Origin: Acidobacteriaceae bacterium | GTDB lineage: Bacteria > Acidobacteriota > Terriglobia > Bryobacterales > Bryobacteraceae | NCBI GenBank assembly: GCA_019243205.1 | Contig: JAFAUR010000176.1 | Coordinates: forward strand, 1-59,957 | DNA length: 59,957 nucleotides | Reading direction: 5' to 3' | Part shown: positions 8,100 through 42,370 of the stretch, piece after piece | Numbering within the stretch: the stretch's first letter is position 1 | Layout: every line of letters starts with the position of its first letter | Made by a program: the position numbers and the translations under genes | The notes under the pieces: model-generated | Told to the model about the DNA's origin: nothing | Databases searched by the model: none | What the model saw: only the letters and a program-made list of their open reading frames with translations

Positions 8100-8989
8100 C
8101 AGGCGGCTTCCTCTTTAGGCGGATTTTGCTGCCGCACCCATGCTTCGGCCACGCTCACAGCCAGCTTGCGGACGCGCGCGATAATTCCTACGCGCTCGGT
8201 GACACTGATGGCGCCCCGCGCGTCCAGGATGTTGAACAGGTGTGAACATTTCAGGGCCTGTTCATAAGCAGGGAGAACCGGACTGAATTTGTTGTCAACC
8301 GTTTTGAGCGCGGCTAGCAATTGCTGGCATTCACGTTCATGCAGATCGAACTCTTGCCAGAGGAGCGCGATGTCGGCCATCTCAAAGTTATAAGTCGAGA
8401 ATTGCTGCTCGTCGGCTAAGCGGACATCGGCATAAGTAAACCCGGGCGCCCACTGAATGTCGTAGATGCTGTCCACATTTTGTAGAAACGCGACGATGCG
8501 CTCGAGTCCATAGGTAATCTCGGCGGGAACGAGATCGAGATCGATCCCGCCGCATTGCTGGAAGTACGTGAACTGCGTGATCTCCAGCCCGTCGAGCATC
8601 ACCTGCCAGCCGATTCCCCAAGCGCCGAGGGTGGGCGCTTCCCAGTTATCTTCTTCGAACTTGATGTCATGTTTGCGAAGGTCGATGCCGATCGCTTCCA
8701 GGCTGCCGAGGTACTGATCGAGAACATCATCGGGCGTGGGTTTGAGAATGACCTGCAGCTGCTGGTGCTTGTAGAGGCGGTTGGGATTTTCGCCGTAACG
8801 GCCATCCGCAGGACGCCGGCTGGGCTGCACGTAAGCCACTTTGTACGGCTTGGGCCCGAGTACGCGAAGGAATGTTTCGGGCGACATGGTTCCGGCCCCG
8901 ACTTCCAGGTCATAGGGCTCCTGGATGATGGTGCCGCGGTCGGCCCAGTAGCGCTTCAACTTAAAGATCGTGTCCTGAAAGTAATCCAT
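8099..8989 (-). CDS. glyQ: glycine--tRNA ligase alpha subunit
   Basis: [46 protein letters not shown] is a highly conserved GlyQ sequence. The ORF extends to 9046, but the conserved N-terminus begins at the Met at 8989. Confidence 0.95.
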
Positions 8990-9002
8990 CGTGTGTTGGC
9001 AT

Positions 9003-9662
9003 TCAGAGGCCTTCGAGCAAGGCAGGCGTGTGGAAGCGTCGCTCAACGTGGTCCTCCATCTGGCGAATGAGGAAGCGTCGCAGGTCGATGGCAGTGTCCT
9101 TATTCCAGGTGCGCACGGGTAGCTGTGAGATGGGGGCGCGCAACATATGGGAAGCGAGTTGCCGGGATTCCTGGGAAAGTGCGCGATCGGGGCAGGTTGA
9201 GAGATCGGGCAGAAAGCCTTGCAGCCGAGTGGCCCAGAGCGAGAAGTACGCGACCGCGGTCCAGACGGCGCCGGGCGCGCGCGTGTGCATATGAGCGAGC
9301 ACGGCGTTTATCAATCGAAAGAACCGTTCGTTCGGTTCGTTAGGCGGGAGCAAATGATCGCTGACTTCGGCGACGTAATCGAGCGCAACGCTTGCATCAA
9401 AGTCGGTAAGGAGACCGAACTGCGATTGGAGAAGGTCACAACCATTCAGGTTGACGAGTTCGCGGGTTTCTTTCTGGCCGTACGAGAGGTTGATCAACGA
9501 TAAACGTTCCAGTCCTGAACCGAAGGTGTTTTTCGGCTTCCGGGCGCGCCGGGCAACGCCGCGTAGTTTGCCTTGATCTCTGGTGAAGAAACTGACAATC
9601 AAATCCGATTCGCGGAACGGATAGGTCCGAAGAACGAAACTTTCACTCACCCGAGCCGGCAT
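9003..9662 (-). CDS. recO: DNA repair protein RecO
   Basis: N-terminal OB-fold signature [33 protein letters not shown], 219 aa, immediately upstream of glyQS. Confidence 0.9.
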
Positions 9663-28982: not shown

Positions 28983-29212
28983 AAAGACCTCCGAGCATGG
29001 AGTAAACAATGATCCGCTAAGTATATCTTTGGTGGCGCACCCGACCGGGCAAAACGAGCTACAGCATAGGCGGACGGAAGCACGCCACCGGTACCGACGG
29101 CACTTTCACCCCATTGAACACACGGACGGGGCTTGTGCACCTCCGACCTGCCGCTCGCGAGGTGTCCTTCGATGTCCACCAAAGTGCATGATTGTGAAAC
29201 ACCGCGAGGGCA

Positions 29213-30040
29213 TCATGACCCGGTGTTATCAGAGGCGGCAGCTGTTCCCACCAGCAGCATATAGATCGTCGACTCGTTTACGCCATCCAAACCCAGATAG
29301 CGGTCGATCGCCCGATCGTTATAACCGCCGATGTTAGCCGTCACTAAGTTCATTTCCTGCGCGGTCAGATTAGCATTTTGGGAAAGATGCCCTGCCTCAA
29401 ACAACACAAAACGATATCCGCGATCGCCGTATTTGAACGTGGAGCGTGCAAACACAGCCGAGATCATAAGGATTGCCGCGGCGCCGCGTCCTAAATCGCT
29501 CTGAACCATCATGCACGAGATGGTCTCTGATTCGTCGGCGTTTCGGAGAATGTCCAACGCATGGTCTTCGGGATCATAGTGATACAGTCCCGGCTGCAAT
29601 CCATGAACCCGCGTTGCATGTATGTAGATCTCGAGCGGATACAGTGCGCCGCCCGAGGGGATCACCCGAAAGGGCCGAGGATAGCTGGTTCCCGCATTGC
29701 TTCGGTTTACGCCGTAGCTCATCACCAGAATTTTGGCCAGCTGCTCAAGTGGCATAAAGCCCGAACCAAAGCTACGGGCCGTGTGCCTGGTGTGGAGAAC
29801 ATCATCGAAGGACTTGCTGGATGCGGGCAAGCTGGTAGGTAATGCAAGCTTAGGAAAGTCTGCGTATGGTTTCACGCGTCGCAGCATGTTCATGCCCGCA
29901 ACCACGGTGGCGTCGCTGGGCCAAAACTTAAACAGGTGATGCAACTCAACGAAACTCGTCTTAGAGTTTTCGTGGAATAGCTCCCAGTTCGCGTCGTAAT
30001 CGGATTGCAAGAAATGATAATCGAGAGATTCGAAGGCCAT
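29213..30040 (-). CDS. SagB/McbC-type FMN-dependent azoline dehydrogenase (set 1, B1)
   Basis: WELFHENSK N-terminal signature, RVIPSGGALYPLEIY, and FKYGDRGYRFVLFEAGH (Lys-Tyr motif present). Last gene of the RiPP operon. Confidence 0.9.
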   Translation of the reverse strand: MAFESLDYHFLQSDYDANWELFHENSKTSFVELHHLFKFWPSDATVVAGMNMLRRVKPYADFPKLALPTSLPASSKSFDDVLHTRHTARSFGSGFMPLEQLAKILVMSYGVNRSNAGTSYPRPFRVIPSGGALYPLEIYIHATRVHGLQPGLYHYDPEDHALDILRNADESETISCMMVQSDLGRGAAAILMISAVFARSTFKYGDRGYRFVLFEAGHLSQNANLTAQEMNLVTANIGGYNDRAIDRYLGLDGVNESTIYMLLVGTAAASDNTGS

Positions 30041-30046
30041 AGCTGG

Positions 30047-31393
30047 TTATGGAAAAGGATGTGGATACGGGTTATCGGGTTCGTTTCTTGCCAACCCGCG
30101 ATGGCCGAGCTTTCGAGGAACCTCGTAGAGACGGGTGACACCGAGAGCGCGGTTGCGATGCCCCATGTAAAGCGGGTGTGCACCGGGTACGACAACTCTG
30201 ACCACGTGCAGACCGAGCTCGGCGACGTCAGGAGTAGTTAGTTCGACAACGAGCGGTTCGAGGCCGGCGGCAACGGTGTTTTCTACCAATTTGCGAAGCT
30301 GTTCAGAGGGCGAACCCGCAGACAGATCCGGCTCATCGCAGAGATCGATCTGACGAGTGGACGACCAGGCAAATTCGGCGAACGGCTTGGCATATTGCGG
30401 ACAATAGAACCGCAAGTGATCGCGCTGGTCCTTCACGAGAGGATGTCCCCGATCCACTTCGACCGGCAGCGGTGGCGTGTAGCGAAGAAGCTGCCGGGCA
30501 TACATTCGCGTGTGCGCGAGTTCGTCAAGCGATTTCAGTAGACAACGTTCTGGTGAAGGATCCGCAGCCGCCGCAACGGCGACCGCCGGCGATGTTTCCG
30601 CGTTAGAGACGCCGACGGTCATGATGGCCGGAACGCCTATGTCAGTCGTGATGTCCATCAGGTACACCCTGATGCCGACAGCCTCGAATCGCGAGACCAG
30701 GTCACAACCAAAAGCCGGCAGAGTTTCATGGCGAATAACAGGACAACTCATCATCGCCTGCCATGTGATTGTGAACGCGTCACGTTCCAGAACTTCGCAA
30801 AGTCCGGAGATCGTAGCCTCCGCAATCGAACCGCCACAGGCCAATCCCGTCGAGATTGGCTGCAGAATAAAGGCACTGCGAGTTGCCCCGTGGTAATGAA
30901 ACGGGATGTAGACAGCTGCTGCCGGCACGAACACTCGCTCTCCGGTAACCAGCGATCTAGCCGGCGTCCAGTGCACAGGTGTATCGACTGTAAACGGATG
31001 CCAAAGGAAGCCTTCCGACAAATACTGCTCCGGAAGATACATGGTGAGAAGCTCAGGATGTACTGCGCGGAGGTTTAATTCGCGATGGGCCGCGAACCGA
31101 AAACCGGCAGGATCATAGATGGCGCTGCAATAGCGTTCGATGGCTTCACCCATCGCCTTAGCAATGGCGCTGTAGCGGTCTGTTGAGGCTCCACCGTTAT
31201 CACCGAAGTTACGCATTGCGGTGAAGCGAGACGCGTCGCACGCTTTCGAAAAGTAGTGGAAGAAATCGGGATCGTCATCATCGACGGGCAATTCTTCGAT
31301 CCGTTGAATGATCCCTACTTTCGGGTCGACCAATTGATCCCAAAGCCCAACTATTTGTTCCAGCCGTGCGCGGCTCCGGGTGCTCAGCGGCAT
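30047..31393 (-). CDS. YcaO-domain cyclodehydratase (set 1, D1)
   Basis: Canonical MGEAIERYCS and CEVLERDAF motifs. Pro-rich C-terminus NPYPHPFP. Confidence 0.9.
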   Translation of the reverse strand: MPLSTRSRARLEQIVGLWDQLVDPKVGIIQRIEELPVDDDDPDFFHYFSKACDASRFTAMRNFGDNGGASTDRYSAIAKAMGEAIERYCSAIYDPAGFRFAAHRELNLRAVHPELLTMYLPEQYLSEGFLWHPFTVDTPVHWTPARSLVTGERVFVPAAAVYIPFHYHGATRSAFILQPISTGLACGGSIAEATISGLCEVLERDAFTITWQAMMSCPVIRHETLPAFGCDLVSRFEAVGIRVYLMDITTDIGVPAIMTVGVSNAETSPAVAVAAAADPSPERCLLKSLDELAHTRMYARQLLRYTPPLPVEVDRGHPLVKDQRDHLRFYCPQYAKPFAEFAWSSTRQIDLCDEPDLSAGSPSEQLRKLVENTVAAGLEPLVVELTTPDVAELGLHVVRVVVPGAHPLYMGHRNRALGVTRLYEVPRKLGHRGLARNEPDNPYPHPFP

Positions 31394-31414
31394 GCAGACA
31401 ATTCCCGGGCGCGC

Positions 31415-32476
31415 TTATTCATGCGGAATCAGACTGCCGACAATCAGCGCCCGGGAAGCTTTTCGCATGATCTCGCCACAATCCGGACAGCGTGGGATCT
31501 TCAGTATACGGCGAACGGTGGAAGAGAATGAAAACAGATTCAGTTCGATGCTCCGGCCGGCTGTATCTGGCGGCGGGTACCCAGCAATGAATTTCACAAC
31601 CTCAATGGCCGCGATCTCGCCGAGCGCAGAGGCCATGGGAGGAAGCAGTCCCGCGGAAACCATGCTGCCCGGATTGGCGCTTGCGTGACGCCGAAGCGCT
31701 CGCCCGGCGGCATAGTTCGGATTGTTGGATTCCCTTCTCAAGAAGTAGCAGCGGAGACAGGCATTTTCATACGGGTGATTGAGAGGTCCCACATAGCCGA
31801 GCAGGTCCGCCTGCCAAACGGGAAGGAACGGCTTCTCGATTCTCAATGCGGTTCGGCTAAACTCGAGCAGCGCATCGCCTTGATCGAAGTCACTCGTTGC
31901 ACAGATAACCGAGCATTCTGACAGTTCTCCGTCGGAGGACAATTCGGGCACGCGTCGCAGGCGGTCTTCGCCCGGTTGGAATCCAACCGGTGCTACCTCG
32001 TTGTTCAAATTAGTGTCATCCACCAGCGTGATCCTGCCAATGCCCGATTCCAGGAGGCTGCGCAGCATCGCTCGCGCTATCAAAGTAACTCCTGCAACCA
32101 CAACATGCGCGTTCCCGAGCCGCTGTGGAGCATTGCGACCCTCCTCGCCCATGTTCCACCAGAATGCCGTTTGAAGTGACTCGAGGCTTGCCTCGTTGAC
32201 GTCCGGCCCCGGCTCTTCTGTGATGAGCCTCCGAAGCTGCATCGTGGTCAGCAAGTTGCCGACTTCGCCACGCAAATGTTCCGGAAAGCTATCCACAATG
32301 TCTTCGGGCGTACGGCTCCCATCGAACTGTTGGATGAGCGACTCGAGGATAGAGTGCACCTGAGCGCCACTAACTACCAGCTCATTGACGCCGCGCTTCA
32401 GAACCGCAGTATCATCAGAAACCCGGACGTATCGAAGATCGGTGCCGTACACTTTGTCCTCTCTGATTTTTGGCAT
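31415..32476 (-). CDS. TOMM cyclodehydratase C protein / E1-like leader-peptide-binding partner (set 1, C1)
   Basis: N-terminal RRE-like VLKRGVNELVVSGAQVHSILESLIQQFDGSRTPEDIV. Cys pairs CLRC ... CPDC. Adjacent to the YcaO gene. Confidence 0.85.
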   Translation of the reverse strand: MPKIREDKVYGTDLRYVRVSDDTAVLKRGVNELVVSGAQVHSILESLIQQFDGSRTPEDIVDSFPEHLRGEVGNLLTTMQLRRLITEEPGPDVNEASLESLQTAFWWNMGEEGRNAPQRLGNAHVVVAGVTLIARAMLRSLLESGIGRITLVDDTNLNNEVAPVGFQPGEDRLRRVPELSSDGELSECSVICATSDFDQGDALLEFSRTALRIEKPFLPVWQADLLGYVGPLNHPYENACLRCYFLRRESNNPNYAAGRALRRHASANPGSMVSAGLLPPMASALGEIAAIEVVKFIAGYPPPDTAGRSIELNLFSFSSTVRRILKIPRCPDCGEIMRKASRALIVGSLIPHE

Positions 32477-32511
32477 GCCGGCGTAATTGCTTGGTGAGCA
32501 ATCGCGCCGGC
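32477..32511 (-). promoter_or_regulatory. RNA stem-loop between the precursor gene and C1, ending at nucleotide -1 of the C1 start codon
   Basis: The mRNA sense reads GCCGGCG-CG-ATTGCT-CACCA-AGCAAT-TA-CGCCGGC followed directly by ATG. This gives 7 + 6 bp of stem around a 2x2 internal mismatch and a 5-nt loop, with no U-tract. Confidence 0.5.
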
Positions 32512-32531
32512 AAATTTATATTCCGGTAGCG

Positions 32532-32921
32532 TTATACGGCGAGGGGATCGACCTGCACCGCGGCTGAACAACAGGAGCAGCAGGGAGTACAGCAGCAGCA
32601 ACAGCTATCGCCTAATGCCTTAACATTCTGTGGAGTGTGGACACTAGTAAGCTTGTTTACTCCCTGGAAATTCGCGATCACCTGATATCGATAATCGGCA
32701 AAGAGACCGTCAATGGTAACCAGGTCGTGTGTAGTCAGCGCATTCACCTTGGGATTTTCCACAGGAGCAGGCGGCACACCAAAGGCCATCGCCATATCTG
32801 CAAAGTCGGCCGGGGTCATGCTGCGGACTGTGTGTGAGGTTTTGAAGCTGTCCAGTTTCTCTGCGGGAAAGATTTCCTCAACAGAGAACCGTTTCTTGTC
32901 TCCACCAGGTGGAGGATTCAT
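32532..32921 (-). CDS. RiPP precursor peptide with Cys/Ser/Thr-saturated core
   Basis: 129 aa. AGGAG lies 7 nt upstream of the ATG. The C-terminal region reads ..KALGD SCCCCCTPCCSCCS AAVQVDPLAV. It sits between two cyclodehydratase/dehydrogenase sets. Confidence 0.8.
   Translation of the reverse strand: MNPPPGGDKKRFSVEEIFPAEKLDSFKTSHTVRSMTPADFADMAMAFGVPPAPVENPKVNALTTHDLVTIDGLFADYRYQVIANFQGVNKLTSVHTPQNVKALGDSCCCCCTPCCSCCSAAVQVDPLAV
32565..32606 (-). other. predicted core-peptide segment SCCCCCTPCCSCCS (codons 106-119 of the precursor)
   Basis: The mRNA reads AGC TGT TGC TGC TGC TGT ACT CCC TGC TGC TCC TGT TGT TCA. Confidence 0.7.
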
Positions 32922-32936
32922 CTTTACTCTCCTTTC

Positions 32937-33779
32937 TCATAACGTTGTTACTTCCGCTACGCGGCCCTGCCGGCCGCCCCTTTCATGCGCACCAGCTTTG
33001 CCCACCGCTACGATGAAAATCGTGGATGCGGTGAGTCCGTCGAGCGCAAGAAAATCGTCTATTGCCGGGTCAAAGTATTCACCGGTGTTCACGCAGGACA
33101 ATCGAAGAGACCCTGCAATCAGGTTCAGATTGCGGACGACTGCGCCGGCTTCCTGATGTACAAACCGATAACCGCGATCTCTATATCGCAAAACAGAACG
33201 CTCCGGCACAGCTGAGATCAAAACGATCAAGGCGGCCGAGAGCGCGACACGCCCATCTATCAATGCGGCGGCGATCTTCTGCGATTGATCACCGGAACGC
33301 AACAGTCGCAGTGAATTGCCGGGTGGGTAATAGTGATAAAGACCACGTTCGAGGCCCGCGATGCTCGCGTTGTGAACAAAAAGTTCGAGTGGATAAGATG
33401 AATTTTCAGAATGAACAGCCCGGCGCTGGCGCGCGCTGTCCGGATCCGGACGCCGTTCCATAATGCCGTAGCTGTAGTGCAACAGCGCCGCCGCCGCGTC
33501 TAGCGGGACTGTGATCGGTTCCAGTTCGGTAACCACCGCGTTACGCGCGAGCGCTTCCTGTAAAGGCTCCGATCCCAGGGCCGCAGGGTTCGGCAGTTTG
33601 ATCTCCGGGTAGCTCTCGAATCTCAGCGATTCCAGTATCTGCTTCTGATAGAAAGCCGTCACTTCTGCAGGCAGGATGCCGTCGTTCGAAAACAATTTTG
33701 AATTCTCATGGAAAAGCTCCCACGGCGAGTCATGCTCGGGTAACGGCGTCGTCAGGAGCTCCCAAGTTGTCGAAATCAC
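32937..33779 (-). CDS. SagB/McbC-type dehydrogenase paralogue (set 2, B2), divergent
   Basis: WELFHENSK signature and DRGYRFVHQEAG are present. However, B2 has LRY where B1 has FKY, and HSENSSYP where B1 has PSGGALYP. Its GTG start overlaps the D2 stop (GTGA). Confidence 0.85.
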   Translation of the reverse strand: MISTTWELLTTPLPEHDSPWELFHENSKLFSNDGILPAEVTAFYQKQILESLRFESYPEIKLPNPAALGSEPLQEALARNAVVTELEPITVPLDAAAALLHYSYGIMERRPDPDSARQRRAVHSENSSYPLELFVHNASIAGLERGLYHYYPPGNSLRLLRSGDQSQKIAAALIDGRVALSAALIVLISAVPERSVLRYRDRGYRFVHQEAGAVVRNLNLIAGSLRLSCVNTGEYFDPAIDDFLALDGLTASTIFIVAVGKAGAHERGGRQGRVAEVTTL

Positions 33780-35101
33780 GACATCACTCCTTTTCGTGGG
33801 AAAGGATGGGGCAACGGATTATCTCCGGTCTCTGGCCTAATGCCGCCGAGGCTCAGCCCTTGCGGAACTTCCCACAACCGGCACCCTCCTAAAGCGCGTG
33901 AACGGTAGCCGAAGAACAGTGGATGCAGACCCGGAATGATGGCACGGATAACTGTCAGCTCGAGGTCTGCGACGTCTGATGTCGTCAGGTTTGCAAGTAC
34001 TGTGTAATAACCAGCCGCCTCGATATTGTTGAGAAGCTTTTGAAGATCGCGACCCGGATATCCGGTAGATAAATCCTCTAACTGGTCGAATTCGATTCGT
34101 TCGCGCGACGAGAATACAAAATCGGCTTGTGCGGAGTTCCGCGGATCGGACCAGAACCGCAAATGCTCACTCTGATCACGAACGCTTTGCGGATCTCGAT
34201 ATCCACAATCCTGCGCTCTCAACAGCTGGCAATACTGATGAACGTGAGCAAGCATTTCGAGGCTTTTACGGACTCCATTTTCCGGAGTCAAACTGGTTCC
34301 GGCTGCAAAGGTCCGGGCTGGCGCTCCCGGGCGAGAATCTGACAGCACTGCAAGAATGCTGGGTATTCCGAGGTCGAACTCAACCTTGAAGAGCGTGACC
34401 GAAGCACCAGTACTTTCAAATCGCGTCACAAGCTCATAATTGGCGTCGCTCAAGGTCTCCACTCGGATTTGTGGCATGCTCAGCCTCGCCTGCCAAAGCA
34501 GCGCAAGAGCATCACATTCGATCACATCGCAAATTGCCTCTGTCGCTGCGCAAGCGGCAATCCAGTGGCAGGCAAGACCGGTTGAAGTGGGCGGCATAAT
34601 CGGCGCCTCGTCAAACCCGAGGACGGCGGGAGCGGTCAGGAATCGCATCGCGGAAGGAATAAAAACAGATGCCTCTGTTACCGGGTTTACGGCTTCGCTC
34701 CACTGAACCGGTGTGTGTCGACTAAAAGCGACCCAGGGGAAATCGGGCTGCGTATACTGTTCCTCGCTAAACAAGGCGAAATCTTCGGGAACAACACAAG
34801 GAAAAGGCGCGCCGTGGGCTGGGCCAATCGGATGCTTGCCATCTTCCTCCGAGATCAGCGCCGCGCAATACGAGGCGATGCCGTCGAGAACCACGCGTGT
34901 CACAGCACTCTTCCGATCTGCCCCGGCTGCCCCGCCCGGTCCCGGAATCGCGTACTCGCTAAATGCGCGCGTGCTGCACGGGTGAACCACGTAGTGGAAA
35001 AATGATGGAGCGCCTGGCGCAAGACGCATCTCCGCTACTGAGCTGAGCACGCCCACCTCATTATCGACTAACTTGTCGATCAGCTGCGTGATTCCGTTCA
35101 T
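33776..35101 (-). CDS. YcaO-domain protein paralogue (set 2, D2), with substituted acidic motifs
   Basis: It aligns by eye with D1 along its length and has the Pro-rich C-terminus NPLPHPFP. The motifs read VLDGIASYCAA and CDVIECDAL. The start is taken at MNGITQ, which forms an ATGA overlap with the C2 stop. Confidence 0.85.
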   Translation of the reverse strand: MNGITQLIDKLVDNEVGVLSSVAEMRLAPGAPSFFHYVVHPCSTRAFSEYAIPGPGGAAGADRKSAVTRVVLDGIASYCAALISEEDGKHPIGPAHGAPFPCVVPEDFALFSEEQYTQPDFPWVAFSRHTPVQWSEAVNPVTEASVFIPSAMRFLTAPAVLGFDEAPIMPPTSTGLACHWIAACAATEAICDVIECDALALLWQARLSMPQIRVETLSDANYELVTRFESTGASVTLFKVEFDLGIPSILAVLSDSRPGAPARTFAAGTSLTPENGVRKSLEMLAHVHQYCQLLRAQDCGYRDPQSVRDQSEHLRFWSDPRNSAQADFVFSSRERIEFDQLEDLSTGYPGRDLQKLLNNIEAAGYYTVLANLTTSDVADLELTVIRAIIPGLHPLFFGYRSRALGGCRLWEVPQGLSLGGIRPETGDNPLPHPFPRKGVMS

Positions 35102-36171
35102 TGGCCCTCTTCTGTTCTTGGCATCGATAAAGATGCGCGCGTCAAAGCTGTAGAGGGAGTCCGGTTGAGGCGGGAACAAACGGGACAACGCGGGACCTTT
35201 AGGACCTGCAGCGGTTTCATCTCGCTGCCAAGCAAGTTGACTTTGATCAGAGTCCCCGGCCTCGCGATGCTGCCGCCAATGCCAAAGTATTTCGTAATCT
35301 CGAGGGCAGCAATGTCACCGAGAATGGTTGCCATGGAAGGATGAAATCCGCCGATAGCCTGCTTATGAATGAAGGCGGCTTCCACTGCTCGTCGGCTTTG
35401 AAAGTCGAGCAAATGCGCATTCTGCCGGAGCCGGACGCATTCGAAACAGGGGGTTTGACCGGGCACAACAATCGGACCGACATACCCGACGAGGTCCTGA
35501 AGCATCACGGGTACGAACTGCAGGTTGTGGAGCACGCAAAATTCATTCCATAACCGCATTTGTTCGACGCCGCCGCTGTCGGAAGTGGCGATAACACAGT
35601 CGAGAGTATCCGGATCAAGATCTTCAGCGTATTCACTTACAGGGGCAGACCATTCCCGCATCCGAAGAGCACCGCCGTCATCAAACAGAGCTTCATTACG
35701 AAGCAATGGTTGGTCGATGACCTCAAGCTCTTCAGCGCCCGATGCTCGCAGACCGGCTATGAGCTGACGCGAAATATAGTTTACGCCTGTTATCTTGATG
35801 CGCTTCGCATTTAATCTCTCGCGGACCTGCGCAGTTTGTGTACCGAAGTGCCAATAGAAAACCTCGAGCTGCGATTCAGAGGTGCGCCCATCGGCCGCCG
35901 GTGTCTCCTCGCTCACGAGGATCGACCGGCTCAGCAGATGATCAATCAAGGCTTCAGCACCCGCGACTTCGCCCGCTGGGAAGAGCGCGACGAGTTCGTC
36001 ACGGGTTGCGCCATTGCGGGCGCAATCGAGCAGGCGGCCTACCGCGTCTGCGGCTCCGGTTCCGGCGATCCTCAGTTCGACTCGTCCGCGCTTGAGTACG
36101 AGAGCGTCCCCTGTGTCGATCAGGTTTACCGGGAGGACCCGAAGCTTTTCGGATTGGAGTTCCAGTTTCAT
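35098..36171 (-). CDS. TOMM cyclodehydratase C protein / E1-like partner (set 2, C2)
   Basis: RRE-like LVLKRGRVELRIAGTGAADAVGRLLDCARNGATRDELV. Cys pairs CFEC ... CPVC. ATGA overlap with the upstream radical SAM stop. Confidence 0.85.
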   Translation of the reverse strand: MKLELQSEKLRVLPVNLIDTGDALVLKRGRVELRIAGTGAADAVGRLLDCARNGATRDELVALFPAGEVAGAEALIDHLLSRSILVSEETPAADGRTSESQLEVFYWHFGTQTAQVRERLNAKRIKITGVNYISRQLIAGLRASGAEELEVIDQPLLRNEALFDDGGALRMREWSAPVSEYAEDLDPDTLDCVIATSDSGGVEQMRLWNEFCVLHNLQFVPVMLQDLVGYVGPIVVPGQTPCFECVRLRQNAHLLDFQSRRAVEAAFIHKQAIGGFHPSMATILGDIAALEITKYFGIGGSIARPGTLIKVNLLGSEMKPLQVLKVPRCPVCSRLNRTPSTALTRASLSMPRTEEGQ

Positions 36172-37547
36172 GCGTTCAGGATCGGGAACTCACAACTGGG
36201 CTGCGGGGGAGCAGGTTGAAATGTGCGCTCGGCTTCTACCATCGTCAACGCGCTTGGGCGATGCGGCGCATACACGCCTCCAAAAACCCGATACAGGTCT
36301 TGATACTCGTGTTCAAAGACACTCTTCGGCAAGGCGGTTTGTGTGACTGGGTGCTGCAGATCAAATAATTCCCAGTTAGGCCTCCCGTTGGGCTGGCGCT
36401 CCGTTATGGCATCGAACGTATCGAGCGCTTCGGTTCCCGGCAGCGGCGTCAAAACCGTGAACGATGGATAATCGACCCGGTTGTGCTCAATAAAGCGGAT
36501 TAACTGCTTGAAGCAGCGCTTGGTGTAATTGGTGTTCACTATGAACCCGCCAAACACATGTATGCCCAATTGTTTCGCTGCCCGAAGGCCGTTCTCTATC
36601 TGCGCTACGTCGAGCCGTTTGTTGTACTCCTTCAGTTCGTTCGCGGTTACCGCTTCAATGCCAATGAATAGCCGTTCCAGGCCGATTTCAGCCCACATGG
36701 CCATCAACTGTGGTTGGCGCAGAAGTGTATCGATGCGGCAGTACGTGAAGTAGCGTTTGCGGATTCCCGCAGCCCTGATAGCCTGGGCAAGCAGCGTCAT
36801 CCGCTTGCCATTTATAAAAGCCTCGTCATCTACCAGGAAAATCGATTGTTCTTGAACAGAGGCGATCTCCGCAACTACACGGTCGACATCACGCATGTGA
36901 TAACGGCCATCTTGGATCTTCCAAAGCGAGCAGAAGGAGCAGCGATACGGGCATCCAACCGTTGTGCGCAGTAGTGCGATTGGTTTCATCCAATCGATGA
37001 AATAACTTTGGCGGTCCGGACCGGCAATGAAACGATTTGGCGAGGGAAGTTGATCGATGTTGTACGAGAGAGGGTTACCGCCGTCGACGAACTCGTCGCC
37101 TGTGCGCGCCCAGACACCGGGGATGGTCTCCGGAATACCGCGTTCCAAGCCACGCAGGATCGCGCGAAACGGATGAACTCCTTCCCCTCGGACAACAAAA
37201 TCGAACTGAGGCAGGAAGAAATCCTCCGGAAGCAGCGTGGCGTGATGCCCGCCAACGACTACCCGGCATGCCGGCAAGAGCCCCTTGATTCGCTTTGCGA
37301 TCGCGATGTTACGCAGGACGTGCATGCTGTACCCGGTGAGAGCTGCAACATCGGGCCGATATTGGGTCAAGGTGGAGTCGAGATCATTCGGGTGCAGCCG
37401 TAAATCGAGAAGCCGGACATCATGGCCATCGAGTTCCGCGCCCGCTGCCAAATATTCCAGAGCAAGCGGTTCAGCTACGGCGCCCAGATCTCCGTACCCA
37501 ATGATCTCCTTGCGCAGACTGGGATACAAAAGAAGAACTCTCAACAC
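36168..37547 (-). CDS. B12-binding-domain radical SAM enzyme (class B, putative methyltransferase) #2
   Basis: N-terminal B12-binding-like VLLLYPS..LEYLAAGAELDGHDVRLLDL. Radical SAM cluster motif GCPYRCSFCSLW. The start is taken at the GTG at 37547, overlapping the methyltransferase stop; the ORF extends to 37637. Confidence 0.85.
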   Translation of the reverse strand: MLRVLLLYPSLRKEIIGYGDLGAVAEPLALEYLAAGAELDGHDVRLLDLRLHPNDLDSTLTQYRPDVAALTGYSMHVLRNIAIAKRIKGLLPACRVVVGGHHATLLPEDFFLPQFDFVVRGEGVHPFRAILRGLERGIPETIPGVWARTGDEFVDGGNPLSYNIDQLPSPNRFIAGPDRQSYFIDWMKPIALLRTTVGCPYRCSFCSLWKIQDGRYHMRDVDRVVAEIASVQEQSIFLVDDEAFINGKRMTLLAQAIRAAGIRKRYFTYCRIDTLLRQPQLMAMWAEIGLERLFIGIEAVTANELKEYNKRLDVAQIENGLRAAKQLGIHVFGGFIVNTNYTKRCFKQLIRFIEHNRVDYPSFTVLTPLPGTEALDTFDAITERQPNGRPNWELFDLQHPVTQTALPKSVFEHEYQDLYRVFGGVYAPHRPSALTMVEAERTFQPAPPQPSCEFPILNA

Positions 37548-38377
37548 GCCCCCTGCCTCTGTTCCTCTCTGTGCGCAGTGACCATGAAGCTGTGCGGCAC
37601 GTCCTTGAGCGTTCGCGGCAAAACCGGATAGGGCCAACGTCCTTGGCCTGCTCCAGGTTCTCCGGGAGACGTTACATGAGCTGACCAGCCGAGCAAACGA
37701 AGCAGTCCCTCGGGGTCATCAGTAGCCGAAAGCCAAGGTGTCCCGTTCTTAGCGAGGGAGTCCAGCGCTGTTCTCATCCAGGGACTTGTCAGGAAAGAAC
37801 GGCTAATGAAATCCGCCGCGAGAGCGCTGCCAGGCGCGCTGTCTTCCGATAAACGAGCGAGTATCTCCGCTACAGCGTTCTCTTGTAAGTAATAGAACAG
37901 ACCCTCAGCAATCCAGAGAGAGGGCGCGTTAGCTCGAAATCCAGCAGCCCGAAGCGCGCTGGTCCACGAGCCTTCCAGATCCGTGCCTACCGCGACTCTG
38001 CGACACAGGGCTGGAGAATCCCTGCCCAGGATTCTGTTCTTAACCTTGAGCAACTCGGGATCATCGAGTTCAAAGACAGTTGTACTCGCCGGCCACTCCA
38101 GCCGGAGTGCGCGAGTGTCCATTCCTGCTGCCACGAGTACCACCTGTCGAATGCCGTCGTTCGCTACGGAGACAGCGAATTCATCGAAGAAGCGCGTGCG
38201 GATCGCTATATAGGGGCCCACATCCGGCATGCCACGCTCGGGCGAGCGAAGCATTTTGAACCCTTCCTCTCCCGCCAGGGATCGCGCGAAGGGATCTGTG
38301 AAAAGACGATCGGGACGTTCCGATTCCAGAGCCCGAATCGCAGCTGTCATCAGAGCGGTATGTGCGACCTTTCTCAA
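37541..38377 (-). CDS. class I SAM-dependent methyltransferase, leucine carboxyl methyltransferase (LCMT / TIGR00027-like) family
   Basis: TALMTAAIRALES..LFTDPFA, VLVAAGMDTRALRL and VFELDDPELLKVK are typical of this O-methyltransferase family. Confidence 0.85.
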   Translation of the reverse strand: MRKVAHTALMTAAIRALESERPDRLFTDPFARSLAGEEGFKMLRSPERGMPDVGPYIAIRTRFFDEFAVSVANDGIRQVVLVAAGMDTRALRLEWPASTTVFELDDPELLKVKNRILGRDSPALCRRVAVGTDLEGSWTSALRAAGFRANAPSLWIAEGLFYYLQENAVAEILARLSEDSAPGSALAADFISRSFLTSPWMRTALDSLAKNGTPWLSATDDPEGLLRLLGWSAHVTSPGEPGAGQGRWPYPVLPRTLKDVPHSFMVTAHREEQRQGAC

Positions 38378-38587
38378 GACGTCGATTCGCCCTGATAAAA
38401 CTTCCCAATAGACAACGGGAGTGTTGAGGTTGAACCTGCGTCGAACTGTCCCGCAGACATACTTTTCCGCAAACCTTCGAGAGGGGATCAGTATGACATA
38501 GCGGAAGCGTTTCGAAAAGCTATTTTTTTATTTTTATGAATATGAACTCATTGTGAGTTTCTTCGCTGAGCTTTCTAATACTTCCGG
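38378..38587 (-). promoter_or_regulatory. AT-rich 210-bp intergenic gap inside the cluster (candidate internal promoter)
   Basis: This is the only sizeable non-coding gap between 32.5 and 42.0 kb. It contains the A/T tract CTATTTTTTTATTTTTATGAATATGAA. I could not identify a convincing -35/-10 pair. Confidence 0.25.
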
Positions 38588-40252
38588 TTATGCACGCGGC
38601 AGCGGTGGCGATTTACGGCTCAAAATTTCGTGTAACGCAGCGAACTCGGGTGCCGCGCGAATAGCGCTCGCGGATACATCCTTACCCAAAAAGCGATTGA
38701 AAGCGCTTACGCCGAGGCGCACATCGTCAACAGAGAAACCATTTGCGTACAACAAAAACTCCGTCCAAGCCTCGCCGCGCACAGCATTATGAACGGCGTA
38801 CCTCTGCTCTTCCGCCACTTTTCTGGCAAGTACTTGCGCGGTTCGCGAATCCATGGTGTTGTGTTTCCAGTCCATACCCATACCCTCGATACCGAATTCC
38901 ACCGCACGGGCTCCCACCGGTGTGGATGGAATGTAGACCCACGTGCAGACCGTGCAGAACGGAAGCTGCATCTCGTCCAGGAAACTTACAATCTTCCAGG
39001 CCGAATCTTCCGTCTCTCCCGGATAACCCACGATGAAGTTCGCATGAACCTCAATGCCGTATTTGCGTAGGTGGTCAATACCGCGCTTGTACTGCTGTAC
39101 CTGGGCGACCTTGTTCATGTTTTTCAGAATCCGATTGTCAGCGGATTCCAACCCGGCAAAAACCGCCCGGCAGTGCGATTCCTTCATCAGCCGGGCTGTC
39201 TCTTCGTCCGCATATTGCGGACGAAAAAAGGAATACCATTCGAAATCGAACTTGGCCAATACTTTGAGTAACTGTTTGAAACGGCCAAGCGGCACGTTGA
39301 AGGTATCGTCCGTAAAAATCAGGGAGCGCACCGAGCCCAGCTTGCGCAGTTCCTGCAGCTCCCGATCTACAACCTCCACCGGTGTCAACGTGAGCGGTCC
39401 CTGATTAACCGGGTATTCACAAAAGGCGCACTTGAACGCACAGCTTCGCGCGGTGCGTATGTGAACGGTGTGATACAGGTGATCCGTTTGCGGTAATCGG
39501 CTCCAGTGAATGAATGGTTCGTCCGTCTGGAAGGGCGGCTCCGGCGCGTCCGGGGGTGGGATGACGCTGCGGCCACAACGTATGTAGGTACGGGGAATGC
39601 TCGGGTCCGTGATGAGCGCCTGGAGCGAGGACCGTCGAAGTATCTCAAGTAAGGGCACTTCGCCGCGCGGGCTCACAACGTACAGATCCGCGCCATAGGA
39701 TTGCAATTGTGAAAGAAAAATTGGGCGAGGAAGATTTTTCTCGTAACTTACAAGCATTAAGCCCCCGAGAACGATCAGCGCATCTGGCCACTCTTTGCGG
39801 ATTTGGGCGATCGCAAGGGGAATGGTTTCTCTCTCGGCGGCGTCGAAGAGAAGCGTAGTGGAAAGCAGAATGAATCGGGGCTTGTATTCGCACCCGAGGG
39901 CGCTCAAGCGCTCGCGGTTAACCGAGTTAGCGACGCGCACCTTGAACCCGTGGCGCGAAAGCACGTCAAGGTAGTAACTGCCCGCAAGCAGGGTTAGGTT
40001 GAACGGATCATAGCGTTCATGCTCCCGGGTCGAGCCCGTTTTGACCCAGCTTAGGAATCGGCTAAAGTCATACAGCTTTCCGTCGATGACAAGGTCCACC
40101 TCATCCTTCATGAACAATTCATCGGATAATGCGGCGTGAATCCCGCGCGTTCGCGCCATGGACGGCCGCTCGTAGTCGAGATCTGTATCGTTGTGCCACC
40201 GATCCTCGTTGGCATAGAAAGGAATGAACAGCGCGTCCAGAGTCTCAGGCAT
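38588..40252 (-). CDS. B12-binding-domain radical SAM enzyme (class B) #1
   Basis: 554 aa. Radical SAM motif ARSCAFKCAFCEYP preceded by a Rossmann-like B12-binding-type region (RFILLSTTLLFD..LIVLGG). The start overlaps the hydrolase stop by 8 nt (ATGCCTGA). Confidence 0.85.
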   Translation of the reverse strand: MPETLDALFIPFYANEDRWHNDTDLDYERPSMARTRGIHAALSDELFMKDEVDLVIDGKLYDFSRFLSWVKTGSTREHERYDPFNLTLLAGSYYLDVLSRHGFKVRVANSVNRERLSALGCEYKPRFILLSTTLLFDAAERETIPLAIAQIRKEWPDALIVLGGLMLVSYEKNLPRPIFLSQLQSYGADLYVVSPRGEVPLLEILRRSSLQALITDPSIPRTYIRCGRSVIPPPDAPEPPFQTDEPFIHWSRLPQTDHLYHTVHIRTARSCAFKCAFCEYPVNQGPLTLTPVEVVDRELQELRKLGSVRSLIFTDDTFNVPLGRFKQLLKVLAKFDFEWYSFFRPQYADEETARLMKESHCRAVFAGLESADNRILKNMNKVAQVQQYKRGIDHLRKYGIEVHANFIVGYPGETEDSAWKIVSFLDEMQLPFCTVCTWVYIPSTPVGARAVEFGIEGMGMDWKHNTMDSRTAQVLARKVAEEQRYAVHNAVRGEAWTEFLLYANGFSVDDVRLGVSAFNRFLGKDVSASAIRAAPEFAALHEILSRKSPPLPRA

Positions 40253-41075
40253 ATGCTTCGAGTTTTCGGCTGTGCGCCGTCCAGTGTTCCTCGAGGATGT
40301 TATGTACCGCTCGGGGGTCCTCCAGCAGACAGAGGTGTCCCAAAGACGGAAGGTAACGGCGCTCGCAGTTTGGAAGGTATCGCCGAATCAACTCCCCACA
40401 GCGTTTGAAAGCAGGAAGCTCGTTGTCTCCCACTAATACGAGAGTGGGTGTCGGAGAGTTACGCAGCTGCTCAACGCTCTGACGATGATTACTGAGGCGT
40501 CCATAAGATCCATCTTGCAGTTCCCACCAAGGATGCTTTCCAACCAATCCCCACAATCTGTTCCACAATGCCGGATGGGCTTCGGCCCCTTTGAAGATAT
40601 TTGGCGGCGATTGCATCCAGAGCCGTCGAAGTTCAGGCGTAAAGCCTTCGCGACGGTAGATGGCGGCTAGCTCCTCATAACGCGCGCCCACGTCACTATC
40701 CTGCGGACCGCCCCCGAGTGCGGGGGCTCCCAACGTCAAAGACCGAAAGGAATCCGGAAACTCGATAATGATCTGAAGCCCGAGCAGCGTACCGAATGAG
40801 AGTGCCGCGATGTGCTCGATACCTCTCGCCAGTGCCGAACGTGCAACTCGCCGCGCAAGTGAAGGCAGATTCTCAGACGCAGGCAGCGGCAACGAGTAGC
40901 CGTGTCCTGGAAGATCGATGCCCGTGTGATCCCAATCCGGAAGCAGTTCCCAAAGCTCCGACCAAGCGCTCGAATCTATGGTGTAGCCATGCAGCCAAAG
41001 GACCTTGTCCCGCTTGCCCGGCGAGACACGGGCGACAAGATCCCTATCGAACAGAACAAGTGGCGTGTGCTTCAT
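40245..41075 (-). CDS. alpha/beta-fold hydrolase
   Basis: VLWLHGYT..DLPGHGYS oxyanion region, nucleophile elbow AALSFGT, C-terminal LGHLCLLEDP His. The start is taken at MKHTPL; the ORF extends to 41126. It overlaps the Rieske gene 3' end by about 32 nt. Confidence 0.8.
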   Translation of the reverse strand: MKHTPLVLFDRDLVARVSPGKRDKVLWLHGYTIDSSAWSELWELLPDWDHTGIDLPGHGYSLPLPASENLPSLARRVARSALARGIEHIAALSFGTLLGLQIIIEFPDSFRSLTLGAPALGGGPQDSDVGARYEELAAIYRREGFTPELRRLWMQSPPNIFKGAEAHPALWNRLWGLVGKHPWWELQDGSYGRLSNHRQSVEQLRNSPTPTLVLVGDNELPAFKRCGELIRRYLPNCERRYLPSLGHLCLLEDPRAVHNILEEHWTAHSRKLEAYA

Positions 41076-41994
41076 TGGCCGCGGACTCTTCGTCTTCGAA
41101 GCGCATACAGAATTTCTGGAAGGCAAGGATCAGGTCGTCTTCCGGGGTTAGCCGATTCGGCGCATCGTGGATGCGATTTTCCCAGATCACCAGATCTTGT
41201 TCATAAGCAAGTTTGCTGTCGCGCAGAAGAGCACGGATGGCTTGCTGCGAAGGCGGGCTGCCATCCTCAGTAGCGGGCGCCGCAACAGACACGCGGATGG
41301 TACAGCTGCCGTTGCCGTTCGGCGTAGATCCGGAGATCACCGTATTTTCACCCAACCGGCTGACGCACACATTTGGACTAATCACTTGAGCAAGAAATTG
41401 CATTTCCGTGCCTGCATCCTGCACCGCGCCATTGTGCCAGGCTGTTTCGAATGCCTCCGCGTAGAACGTGCCGGAAAGATGTAATTCGCCGCTGTCCCCG
41501 GGACTCAGCTTGAGATTCGGGCGGCGTTTGAGACGATGCACGGATTGAAAGTGCGCCGGGTCAAAGCCATTCTCTACGACGAGTTCAGCCGGAGCTTGTG
41601 CGGTCATAGTAAACCCAGGCACTAAGTAATGTGTTGCGTTCAGCTCTTCGAGCAGACGGGTGAGCCCGTTCTCATGCCGCTCGGACAAGAGGACGAACAA
41701 TAGACCGCCAACGGCTAGTGTGCGGTAACGGGGCGTTTTAAATTGACAGTCGGAATCTGAACCGAGGCCGATGCGGTAACCATGGAACGGACAGATGATT
41801 GCGCCTCTGTCCAGCGTGCCGCCGAAGGCCAGATGAGCTCCTCGGTGCGGGCATGTTGCATTGTACGCGCCAAACTCATTTTCCTGCTTGACTAACAGAA
41901 GCCGAAGGTTGCCAATACGAAGCGGTGTGACTTTATCGCGAATCTCTCTTTCGAATCCGACCTGGTACCAACCGCGATAGAGATGCTGAGGCAT
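41044..41994 (-). CDS. Rieske [2Fe-2S] non-heme iron oxygenase
   Basis: CPHRGAHL-x17-CPFHGYRI Rieske motif. Mononuclear iron motif ENGFDPAHFQSVH (E-x3-D-x2-H-x4-H). GGGAGGA RBS upstream of the ATG. Confidence 0.85.
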   Translation of the reverse strand: MPQHLYRGWYQVGFEREIRDKVTPLRIGNLRLLLVKQENEFGAYNATCPHRGAHLAFGGTLDRGAIICPFHGYRIGLGSDSDCQFKTPRYRTLAVGGLLFVLLSERHENGLTRLLEELNATHYLVPGFTMTAQAPAELVVENGFDPAHFQSVHRLKRRPNLKLSPGDSGELHLSGTFYAEAFETAWHNGAVQDAGTEMQFLAQVISPNVCVSRLGENTVISGSTPNGNGSCTIRVSVAAPATEDGSPPSQQAIRALLRDSKLAYEQDLVIWENRIHDAPNRLTPEDDLILAFQKFCMRFEDEESAANEAHATCSVR

Positions 41995-42370
41995 CTACAG
42001 GTCCTCCCGCCTAGGTTCAACTTTCGTCCATCCTCGCCTATCCTGCCACGCCATCTTCCAGATGAGCCATCTAGGCACGAACCCGGAATGGCCGCACCCA
42101 TACACTGAGAAATTTCAAAGCAGTTTTCGGAGATTATCACAACCTGCCGCACTCTTGGCCCGTGCTGCTCACGGACCTTACTTTTTGCGTTGACGTGGAC
42201 GATTTCGTTCGACACCGACGTGTACAAGTCAGCAACCGGAACACGTGGCATCGCACCGGAAGTCGCCAAGTGTTCTGAACGATTTCCAGAGCGACATGTT
42301 CGGGAACATGCCACATCCGCTACTCCAAAAACGATGATCGCAGCGCCATTTATTTGCAGCGCCGTAGCGA

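Follow-up and report, generated by a model that had tools for sequence, protein, structure and literature searches.

A conserved YcaO paralogue with an ablated ATP/Mg2+ site in a two-set azole gene cluster of an Acidobacteriaceae bacterium

Can the YcaO fold be kept by selection once its ATP/Mg2+ site has been replaced? This question is raised by D2, a minus-strand gene in a 59,957-nucleotide contig of an Acidobacteriaceae bacterium (GenBank assembly GCA_019243205.1, contig JAFAUR010000176.1; the whole stretch is called the window), in which two sets of azole-synthetase-like genes, each with an E1-like protein (C), a YcaO protein (D) and a SagB-type dehydrogenase (B), lie on either side of a gene for a Cys-rich precursor peptide (A). 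To our knowledge, amide activation in the peptide backbone depends on ATP in all YcaOs characterised so far, and membership of the family is diagnosed by the E/E/R motifs. A sequence-only reading of the window had offered two possibilities for D2, impaired catalysis with a role as scaffold or regulatory subunit, or an altered chemistry; this proposal was supported by the analyses described here, with the computed evidence pointing to loss of the canonical activity. D2 is a member of the YcaO superfamily. Judged from its residues, it probably lacks canonical ATP-dependent cyclodehydratase activity, and we assign a probability of roughly 60% to its being a conserved non-catalytic pseudoenzyme that would serve as a scaffold or docking subunit beside D1, the canonical YcaO of the other gene set.

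ATP/Mg2+ motifs and C-terminus of D2

Residue numbers refer to the 441-residue D2 product; in the longer open reading frame (ORF; 33776-35188, minus strand) they are higher by 29. The start codon is almost certainly the ATG at 35101, because ATGA holds both this ATG and the C2 stop codon, and because the 441-residue product matches the called protein P0001 and is collinear with all orthologues. This product was recognised as a YcaO protein by Pfam (PF02624; 150.3 bits against a cut-off of 25.7, profile positions 4-325 of 325). When its AlphaFold2 model (predicted local distance difference test score, pLDDT, 90.7; predicted template modelling score, pTM, 0.93) was searched with Foldseek, only YcaO structures were returned, LynD being the best (query TM-score, TMq, 0.80) and LynD, MusD, TruD, MJ1094, the M. 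kandleri YcaO (Mk-YcaO), the E. coli YcaO (Ec-YcaO) and McbD all matching at a probability of 1.00. Both the profile match and, at the level of a model, the fold are those of the YcaO superfamily.

In ATP-utilising YcaOs an acidic/Arg sphere is carried on three helices, the third contributing a Glu (a Gln in McbD). When the seven corresponding positions (E-x2-E-R, E-x2-E-R-D and the third-helix Glu) were compared, only one was found to be identical in D2, whose motif state reads DASDECM in place of the invariant E,E,R / E,E,R / E; four of the six changes are non-conservative (E to A, R to S/G, R to C and E to M). In the first motif G is replaced by L, the two Glu by D73 and A76, and Arg by S77; in the second, E is replaced by D192 and R by C196, with E195 and D197 kept; and in the third, the invariant Glu is replaced by Met283, a change absent from the sequence-only reading. 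That reading had described the first two motifs as E-x2-E turned into D-x2-A and E-x2-E-R turned into D-x2-E-C, and alignment bore it out, the full changes being E-x2-E-R to D-x2-A-S and E-x2-E-R-D to D-x2-E-C-D. Its coordinates hold for the shorter cores, LDGIASY at 34868-34888 and DVIECD at 34511-34528, both of which were reproduced by translation, but the full strings that it quoted run wider (VLDGIASYCAA, 34859-34891; CDVIECDAL, 34505-34531).

The registration of these motifs, made originally by eye against D1, proved correct by BLASTP, phmmer, MAFFT and hmmalign. BLASTP aligned D2 with D1 (30047-31393) at 37% identity over 446 residues (E = 4e-88), pairing without gaps (i) AVTRVVLDGIASYCAA with AIAKAMGEAIERYCSA at motif 1, also given as VVLDGIASYCAA with AMGEAIERYCSA, with no gaps nearby; and (ii) ICDVIECDAL of D2 with LCEVLERDAF of D1 at motif 2. 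The canonical motifs of D1, GEAIERY and EVLERD, aligned by phmmer on CEA(V/I)ERY and ELVERD of LynD/TruD, and CDVIECD of D2 fell on the same ELVERD when the PDB was searched with phmmer. A profile built from the two clades likewise aligned the motif columns in TruD, LynD, MusD and MJ1094, and in Mk-YcaO with confidence from the second motif onward only. The third-helix Glu column is represented by AVTEVNQ in LynD, ALTEVNQ in TruD, ALTEVAQ in MJ1094 and ALLEVAQ in Mk-YcaO, and the Glu is also found in MusD. In agreement with the profile alignment, the AlphaFold2 model places the three D2 motifs on long helices of the YcaO fold (predicted at residues 63-81, 182-204 and 273-297). The possibility that the motifs were mis-registered and that the canonical Glu/Arg residues lie elsewhere in D2 was refuted by the concordant alignments and the motif-bearing helices, and retains next to no probability; no E-x2-E-R string occurs in the D2 translation. 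Semi-conserved Cys residues were also noticed beside the active-site motifs of both D1-like and D2-like proteins (ERYC, GLAC[HG] and a C immediately before E/D-x2-E); they are absent from LynD/TruD, and D2 adds Cys196.

The same replacements were examined across orthologues, and 25 of them, down to 47% identity, were found to keep the variant residues. Residue frequencies were compared, in D1 numbering, between these 25 D2-type sequences (47-86% identical) and 55 canonical homologues from the same search. E83, E86, R87, E200, E203, R204 and D205 are each present in 100% of the canonical set, E291 in 98%, and G68 and G82 in 96%. In the D2 clade E83 is Asp (24/25); E86 is Ala, Ser or Thr (25/25); R87 is Gly, Ser, Ala or Phe, with Arg in none; E200 is Asp (25/25); R204 is Cys (24/25); E291 is Met (21/25); G68 is Ala; and G82 is Leu or Thr, while E203 (24/25) and D205 are kept. 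The substrate-side elements, namely the STG beta-turn, W134, H286 and PHPF, are retained in D2. In McbD, changing the Mg2+-coordinating Glu (E167A) almost abolishes processing and changing Gln264 of the ATP sphere on the third helix (Q264A) strongly reduces it (PMC6395948), both residues being mapped approximately onto the D2 columns; in Ec-YcaO, E202A impairs thioamidation (PMC13063428).

The C-terminus of D2 was also found to depart from the canonical form. PLPHPFP, which the sequence-only reading took for a retained C-terminus, is present (33797-33817) but is not C-terminal, since the six residues RKGVMS follow it, and it therefore gives no argument for retained catalysis. In all 55 canonical homologues the final Pro is the last residue, and each of 112 canonical representatives ends one residue past the aromatic of PHP[FY], whereas 11 of 13 degenerate representatives carry 6-8 residues past that aromatic; the extension thus tracks the ablated class. 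In McbD the free carboxylate of the terminal Pro396 is the proposed general base, and its deletion dysregulates processing so that thiazoles only are made (PMC6395948). At the nucleotide level, the tail codons of D2 form a Shine-Dalgarno-like run (AAAGGAG) for B2, 7 nt before the B2 GTG, and the D2 stop overlaps the B2 start as GTGA (33776-33796 region); a similar purine-rich run was seen at every orthologous D2-B2 junction checked (L001, L003, L004, L006 and L007, where L numbers denote comparison loci). In canonical D1 genes the Pro codon is always the last, and B1 then has no recognisable Shine-Dalgarno sequence (window, L001 and L003). Whatever the constraint on the tail, the canonical rule of ending exactly at this point is lifted in D2.

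When D2 was compared with the D proteins of NCBIfam TIGR03604 (SagD family), its score fell below the threshold (203.7 against 219.25 bits; D1 scores 290.5) and its chain did not end in the terminal PxPxP, but its gene context was that of the family, with C2 and B2 on either side and precursor A after B2. Because three defining features were tested and found to be lacking, D2 was set outside the family of ATP-using, azoline-forming D proteins. We define a pseudoenzyme operationally as an enzyme homologue that is without the catalytic or cofactor motifs yet is maintained by selection; with its motifs lost and with conservation and purifying selection kept, D2 would by this definition be one.

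Conservation of the degenerate class and its partner genes

To place D2 among its relatives, 1.84 billion representative proteins were searched with a profile, the best 150 were taken, and the 133 full-length ones were scored at the seven motif positions. The distribution was bimodal: 117 clusters had no position changed, two had one changed and one had two changed, none had three or four changed, and 13 had five to seven changed. This gap between 120 clusters with 0-2 changes and 13 with 5-7 fits a discrete functional class and not drift. The degenerate subclades differ in the residues that they carry (DASDECM, ERFSQDD, RSVDKEE, AAREAHQ and others), which fits a release from the ATP constraint and not one shared new chemistry.

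Selection on D2 was estimated from the ratio of nonsynonymous to synonymous substitution rates (dN/dS) against the 86%-identical orthologue L007, and values of 0.156 for D2, 0.11 for C2, 0.18 for B2 and 0.14 for the precursor were obtained. The D2 ORF is intact, with the same variant residues, in at least 25 orthologues of 47-86% identity. In four soil metatranscriptomes, contigs 95-99% identical to the window (compared over 29000-42000) were found to cover the precursor, B2, D2 (34220-35099), C2, the radical S-adenosylmethionine (SAM) genes and the methyltransferase gene, and one run had contigs over D2, C2, both radical SAM genes and the methyltransferase gene. The precursor was present in all four and had the top contig depth in three, contig depth being a poor measure of expression and carry-over of DNA being possible in such samples. 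A close relative thus appears to express the cluster in soil.

These results bear directly on whether D2 is a decaying duplicate whose substitutions are neutral damage. Its orthologues and those of B2 are somewhat less conserved than those of D1 and B1 (66/60/47% identity for D2 against 70/67/61% for D1; 55/50/45% for B2 against 71/69/65% for B1), and the copy in Solibacteraceae bacterium SbA4 is split into two ORFs, as decay would lead one to expect. However, decay is at odds with a dN/dS of 0.16, the confident predicted fold, the RNA contigs and the intact ORF in at least 25 orthologues, and the degenerate clade, which numbers 13 clusters at 50% identity, is an old one that has diversified. 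Pseudogene decay is therefore effectively refuted by the selection and conservation data and has only a very small chance of being right. The kept fold together with purifying selection indicates that the D2 gene still yields a functioning protein and is not on its way to loss.

The partner dehydrogenase was found to have lost its motifs as well. SagB-type dehydrogenases that lie beside canonical YcaOs keep R-x-[TS]-x-[RK], PS[GA]G, Lys-Tyr, EAGH and GG[YF] in 21 of 21 cases from the loci compared, Lys201 and Tyr202 being the catalytic residues in McbC (PMC6395948). In the B2 of the window, the catalytic KY has become RY and, among the four FMN-type motifs, RxTxR has become N..T, PSGGA has become HSENS, EAGH has become EAGA and IGGY has become TGEY. 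All five motifs are changed in the B2 proteins beside type-I D2 proteins (window, L001, L003, L004, L007 and L013), and in L004 the KY pair reads VD. B2 and D2 evolve somewhat faster than B1 and D1, and C2 is at least as conserved as C1; the E1-like core, the CxxC...CPxC motif and a leader-binding-type domain (TIGR03882) are retained in both C proteins. Since B2 is degenerate too, the unit to be explained is the whole C2-D2-B2 module.

Two variants within the wider class were noted in passing. A D2-clade member, P0025 (L005 7523-15300), has intermediate motifs (TDAVALY, CDVVGCD and LEELAL), and its B2 keeps KY and RxTxR. In the P0052/P0100 subclade the motifs read LRAVSVY and [CE/CD]VIKED with the tail AACGFYHE, and the contigs carry the YcaO gene and a dehydrogenase-like gene followed by a gene for a 765-784-residue protein without a Pfam match, in place of a second C-D-B set.

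Scaffolding against altered chemistry

We propose that an ancestral azole synthetase of two-fold symmetry, comparable to the McbB4C2D2 octamer, was probably duplicated, and that one half, C2-D2-B2, would then have given up catalysis. This half would have been kept as a scaffold or docking platform, either for the roughly 90-residue folded leader of the precursor or for holding or handling its nine to ten contiguous Cys residues, while D1 and B1 would make the thiazol(in)es by cyclodehydration and oxidation.

Several observations weigh against a scaffold. The inactivity of D2 is read from its sequence only, and two Asp and one Glu that are left in the pocket could bind a metal. In the type-I clade, moreover, D73, D192, E195 and C196 are near-invariant (24, 25, 24 and 24 of 25, respectively) against a mean column identity of 69%, which is odd for a purely structural pocket, where such constancy is not obviously needed. 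The neighbour-joining tree built without the motif columns, in which 12 degenerate clusters formed one clade and the other two stood beside a single canonical sequence, is crude, and its grouping of the degenerate sequences may reflect long-branch attraction. Conservation of the tail, including its [RK]-G, may reflect a nucleotide-level constraint because the tail codons hold the Shine-Dalgarno-like run for B2, and for the same reason the claim that tail conservation proves a role at the protein level was rejected. The altered C-terminus is also less telling for this precursor, since its core is nearly all Cys and the cyclisation of Cys needs the terminal-carboxylate base less than that of Ser does, as the McbD mutant lacking Pro396 still makes thiazoles. 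Finally, a canonical D1 partner was found in every locus with enough sequence except L005, several contigs being too short for a count of D2-D1 pairing; in L005 the C2-D2-B2 set is followed by an aminotransferase gene and a DDE transposase gene, with no D1 or precursor within 4 kb.

It is because D73, D192, E195 and C196 are so strictly conserved in the immediate clade that altered chemistry has to be considered, and sequence alone does not separate it from scaffolding. D2 could on this account be neofunctionalised, that is, catalytic with a remodelled pocket (Asp/Ala/Ser/Cys/Met plus E188) and with another metal stoichiometry, nucleotide, activating group or reaction, for example in handling Cys next to existing azoles or in thiol/metal chemistry through Cys196. 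We consider this unlikely overall, though it has points in its favour: D197 is near-invariant in the 25 orthologues along with the four residues just named; an E/D four residues before D192 is found in 21 of 25 members of the D2 clade and is rare in canonical sequences; the substrate-side elements listed above are retained; clusters with two YcaOs of separate chemistries are known (bottromycin, TfuA-linked second YcaOs and lactazolicin); and MusD, to which the title of PDB 7u58 ascribes an ATP-dependent peptidase activity, shows that YcaO chemistry can diversify. However, all known YcaO chemistries are ATP-dependent and use the E/E/R motifs, MusD itself aligning as CEAIERY and EIVERD, whereas D2 has lost both Arg and two Glu. 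The sister subclades carry unrelated or charge-reversed residues (R, K, Q and F) with no common catalytic constellation, and B2 is likewise without its catalytic and cofactor motifs, which would be unexpected for a new two-step chemistry.

A role outside the synthetase was weighed as well, in which C2-D2-B2 would bind the mature poly-thiazole product or the unmodified poly-Cys precursor for self-protection, sequestration or chaperoned export, for example by keeping the 9-10 thiols of the precursor reduced or metal-free. The apparent retention of the fold and the substrate-side motifs with loss of catalysis would suit such a binder; among the genes of the conserved cluster core, none was recognised as a transporter or immunity gene; and with the precursor as the top transcript in three of the four metatranscriptomes, a stoichiometric binder is conceivable. 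Against this, the coupling of the module to a radical SAM tailoring enzyme and its place upstream of the precursor in the operon favour a biosynthetic complex, and the TIGR03882 domain of C2 suggests that it is the leader, rather than the mature product, that is engaged. This alternative is therefore rated as improbable, below altered chemistry.

Cutting across these alternatives, we entertain with considerable reserve that C2-D2-B2 is a new type of accessory complex for peptides that are ribosomally synthesised and then post-translationally modified (RiPPs), built from repurposed YcaO and nitroreductase folds. It could be (i) a receptor or chaperone for the protein-like leader that feeds the poly-Cys core processively into D1/B1; or (ii) a complex in which the remodelled and strictly conserved Asp/Asp/Glu/Cys/Met pocket of D2 takes up a new ligand or metal for ATP-independent chemistry, the two versions taken together being a long shot. 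If true, either version would be the first demonstration of a YcaO-fold protein working without ATP. The reading that we prefer is still that of D2 as a non-catalytic scaffold or docking subunit beside D1.

The cluster and its relation to known systems

The features of the locus are collected in Table 1. In minus-strand order, the genes encode a Rieske oxygenase, an alpha/beta hydrolase, a PhpK-like radical SAM enzyme, an LCM methyltransferase, a B12-binding radical SAM enzyme, C2, D2, B2, A, C1, D1 and B1. Start/stop overlaps of 4 bp link the B12-binding radical SAM gene, C2, D2 and B2, so that C2 is translationally coupled to the radical SAM gene upstream and to D2 downstream, and D2 in turn to B2. 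The true start of that radical SAM gene is probably internal to the listed ORF, because its orthologues are of 445-461 residues. The four tailoring genes at 37541-41994 also adjoin the cluster in L001 and L003, in a different arrangement, and the tailoring genes suggest C-methylation, O-methylation and hydroxylation of the product. C2 has an N-terminal winged-helix-like region and a CxxC...CPxC motif. D1 carries the motifs GEAIERY, EVLERD and KSLDELAH, ends exactly at PHPFP and matches TruD/LynD by phmmer at about 1e-24.

Table 1. Features of the two-set cluster and of type-II relatives; coordinates are those of the window unless a locus is named
Feature	Position	Strand	Remarks
B1	29213..30040	minus	canonical SagB-type flavin mononucleotide (FMN) dehydrogenase; KY, RxTxR, PSGG, EAGH and GG present
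D1	30047..31393	minus	canonical thiazole/oxazole-modified microcin (TOMM) YcaO cyclodehydratase; Pfam 234.8 bits; TIGR03604 290.5 bits
C1	31415..32476	minus	E1-like C protein of the canonical set
Hairpin	32477..32511	minus	15-bp stem, between A stop and C1 ATG; minimum free energy -34 kcal/mol for 96 nt, z = -3.3
Precursor A	32532..32921	minus	129 aa; ends GDSCCCCCTPCCSCCSAAVQVDPLAV
B2	32937..33779	minus	SagB-type dehydrogenase paralogue; degenerate catalytic and FMN motifs
D2	33776..35101	minus	441 aa; YcaO-fold paralogue with ablated ATP/Mg2+ site
D2 C-terminus	33779..33811	minus	PHPFP plus 6-residue extension RKGVMS
D2 motif 3	34244..34267	minus	KSLEMLAH for KSLDELAH; predicted helix 273-297
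D2 motif 2	34505..34531	minus	CDVIECDAL for CEVLERDAF; predicted helix 182-204
D2 motif 1	34865..34888	minus	LDGIASYC for GEAIERYC; predicted helix 63-81
C2	35098..36171	minus	E1-like/ThiF-like; ThiF, TIGR03603 and TIGR03882 matches
B12-binding radical SAM enzyme	36168..37637	minus	head of coupled radical SAM-C2-D2-B2 unit; synteny conserved
LCM-type methyltransferase	37541-38377	minus	
PhpK-like radical SAM enzyme	38588-40252	minus	
Alpha/beta hydrolase	40245-41126	minus	
Rieske/KshA-like oxygenase	41044-41994	minus	
Type-II degenerate YcaO	L006 472-1761		
Type-II degenerate YcaO	L020 ~8001-9311		
Type-II degenerate YcaO	L021 ~8001-9317		

The gene order from the B12-binding radical SAM gene through C2-D2-B2-A-C1-D1-B1 recurs in L001/L002, L003, L004 and L013, the last being SbA4, which is the nearest genome match (66% identity). 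The D2 of SbA4 (L013 5509-7015) lies in two overlapping ORFs, owing to a frameshift or else to faulty assembly of the metagenome-assembled genome (MAG). A scan of genome contigs with the single D2 protein gave no match; with the D2-clade alignment, matches were found, most of them single canonical YcaOs, and only one YcaO, a canonical one, is present at each of thirteen other genome loci. A second, type-II form of degenerate YcaO was found in the position of D2 beside a canonical YcaO in L006 (a metagenome contig that also shows the gene order given above), L020 (an Archangium MAG) and L021 (an Acidobacteriota MAG); its motifs read xEALRFY and C[DG]AIRDD with the tail L-x-[KR]-G, its third-helix Glu is kept, and the neighbouring dehydrogenase is largely canonical.

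The precursor has 36 homologues, and every one with a name is called 'hypothetical protein'; no Pfam or NCBIfam family was matched. Its CCCCCTPCC core is invariant in 28 aligned sequences. AlphaFold2 predicted a helical leader domain at about residues 10-93, with pLDDT mostly above 90, and a disordered core, and Foldseek found no relative of the leader domain in the PDB. The 3' arm of the hairpin ends directly at the C1 ATG, and a scan for consensus terminators on the minus strand after the precursor gene gave no match. In two metatranscriptome runs the precursor contig was seen to stop, with adapter letters flanking, at 32522, some 10 nt downstream of the stop codon and a short way ahead of the hairpin; such a stop may mark a defined 3' end or a point of attenuation between the precursor and set 1.

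With the canonical D proteins of TOMM and linear azol(in)e-containing peptide (LAP) systems (SagD/McbD/BalhD, TIGR03604), D2 shares the YcaO fold, a length of about 440 residues, the STG turn, the PHPF motif and a context between an E1-like C protein and a SagB-type dehydrogenase with a Cys-rich precursor near. It differs from them by the replacement of six of the seven ATP/Mg2+ residues, by the 6-residue extension and by the TIGR03604 score below the cut-off, and in nearly every locus examined it is a second copy beside a canonical one. That azole synthetases can include catalytically dead paralogue domains, which take part in leader binding and in organising the complex, has a precedent in LynD/TruD/PatD and McbB, E1-like McbB being non-catalytic and present in two conformations in the McbB4C2D2 octamer (PMC6395948). 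In those systems, however, the dead module is E1/ThiF-like and the YcaO is active, whereas here the YcaO and the dehydrogenase are the ones that appear to be dead. Other RiPP clusters with two YcaOs include those for bottromycin, lactazolicin (whose second YcaO is without a PxP motif) and coryneazolisin and those with TfuA-linked copies; in these published clusters the second YcaO is treated as catalytic (amidine, thioamide, second substrate or further modification), and loss of the ATP/Mg2+ motifs is not reported. A genomic survey found that non-TOMM YcaOs all keep the canonical ATP pocket (PMC4603692). Ec-YcaO, which thioamidates uL16, has the same fold as D2 but keeps the ATP-binding residues; as in D2, no terminal Pro lies in its active site and the chain continues (PMC6395948), although with a large C-terminal dimerisation domain where D2 has a 6-residue tail. 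No inactive, degenerate, pseudo- or non-catalytic YcaO was found in the literature searched, which is weak evidence as most subscription papers fell outside it.

The locus thus represents an uncharacterised RiPP family of soil Acidobacteriota, with an invariant CCCCCTPCC core behind a folded leader and with genes for two radical SAM enzymes, one methyltransferase and one Rieske oxygenase. A conserved and diversified YcaO clade, to which 13 of the 133 full-length clusters closest to D2 belong, has dropped the ATP site under selection. If these paralogues are inactive, pseudo-symmetric hetero-complexes in which one half is dead can arise in the evolution of azole synthetases, as in that of many other molecular machines; genome mining by 'one YcaO, one chemistry' would over-predict the modifications in such clusters; and the cluster would offer a natural system for the non-catalytic roles of YcaO proteins, namely leader docking, processivity on contiguous Cys residues and complex assembly.

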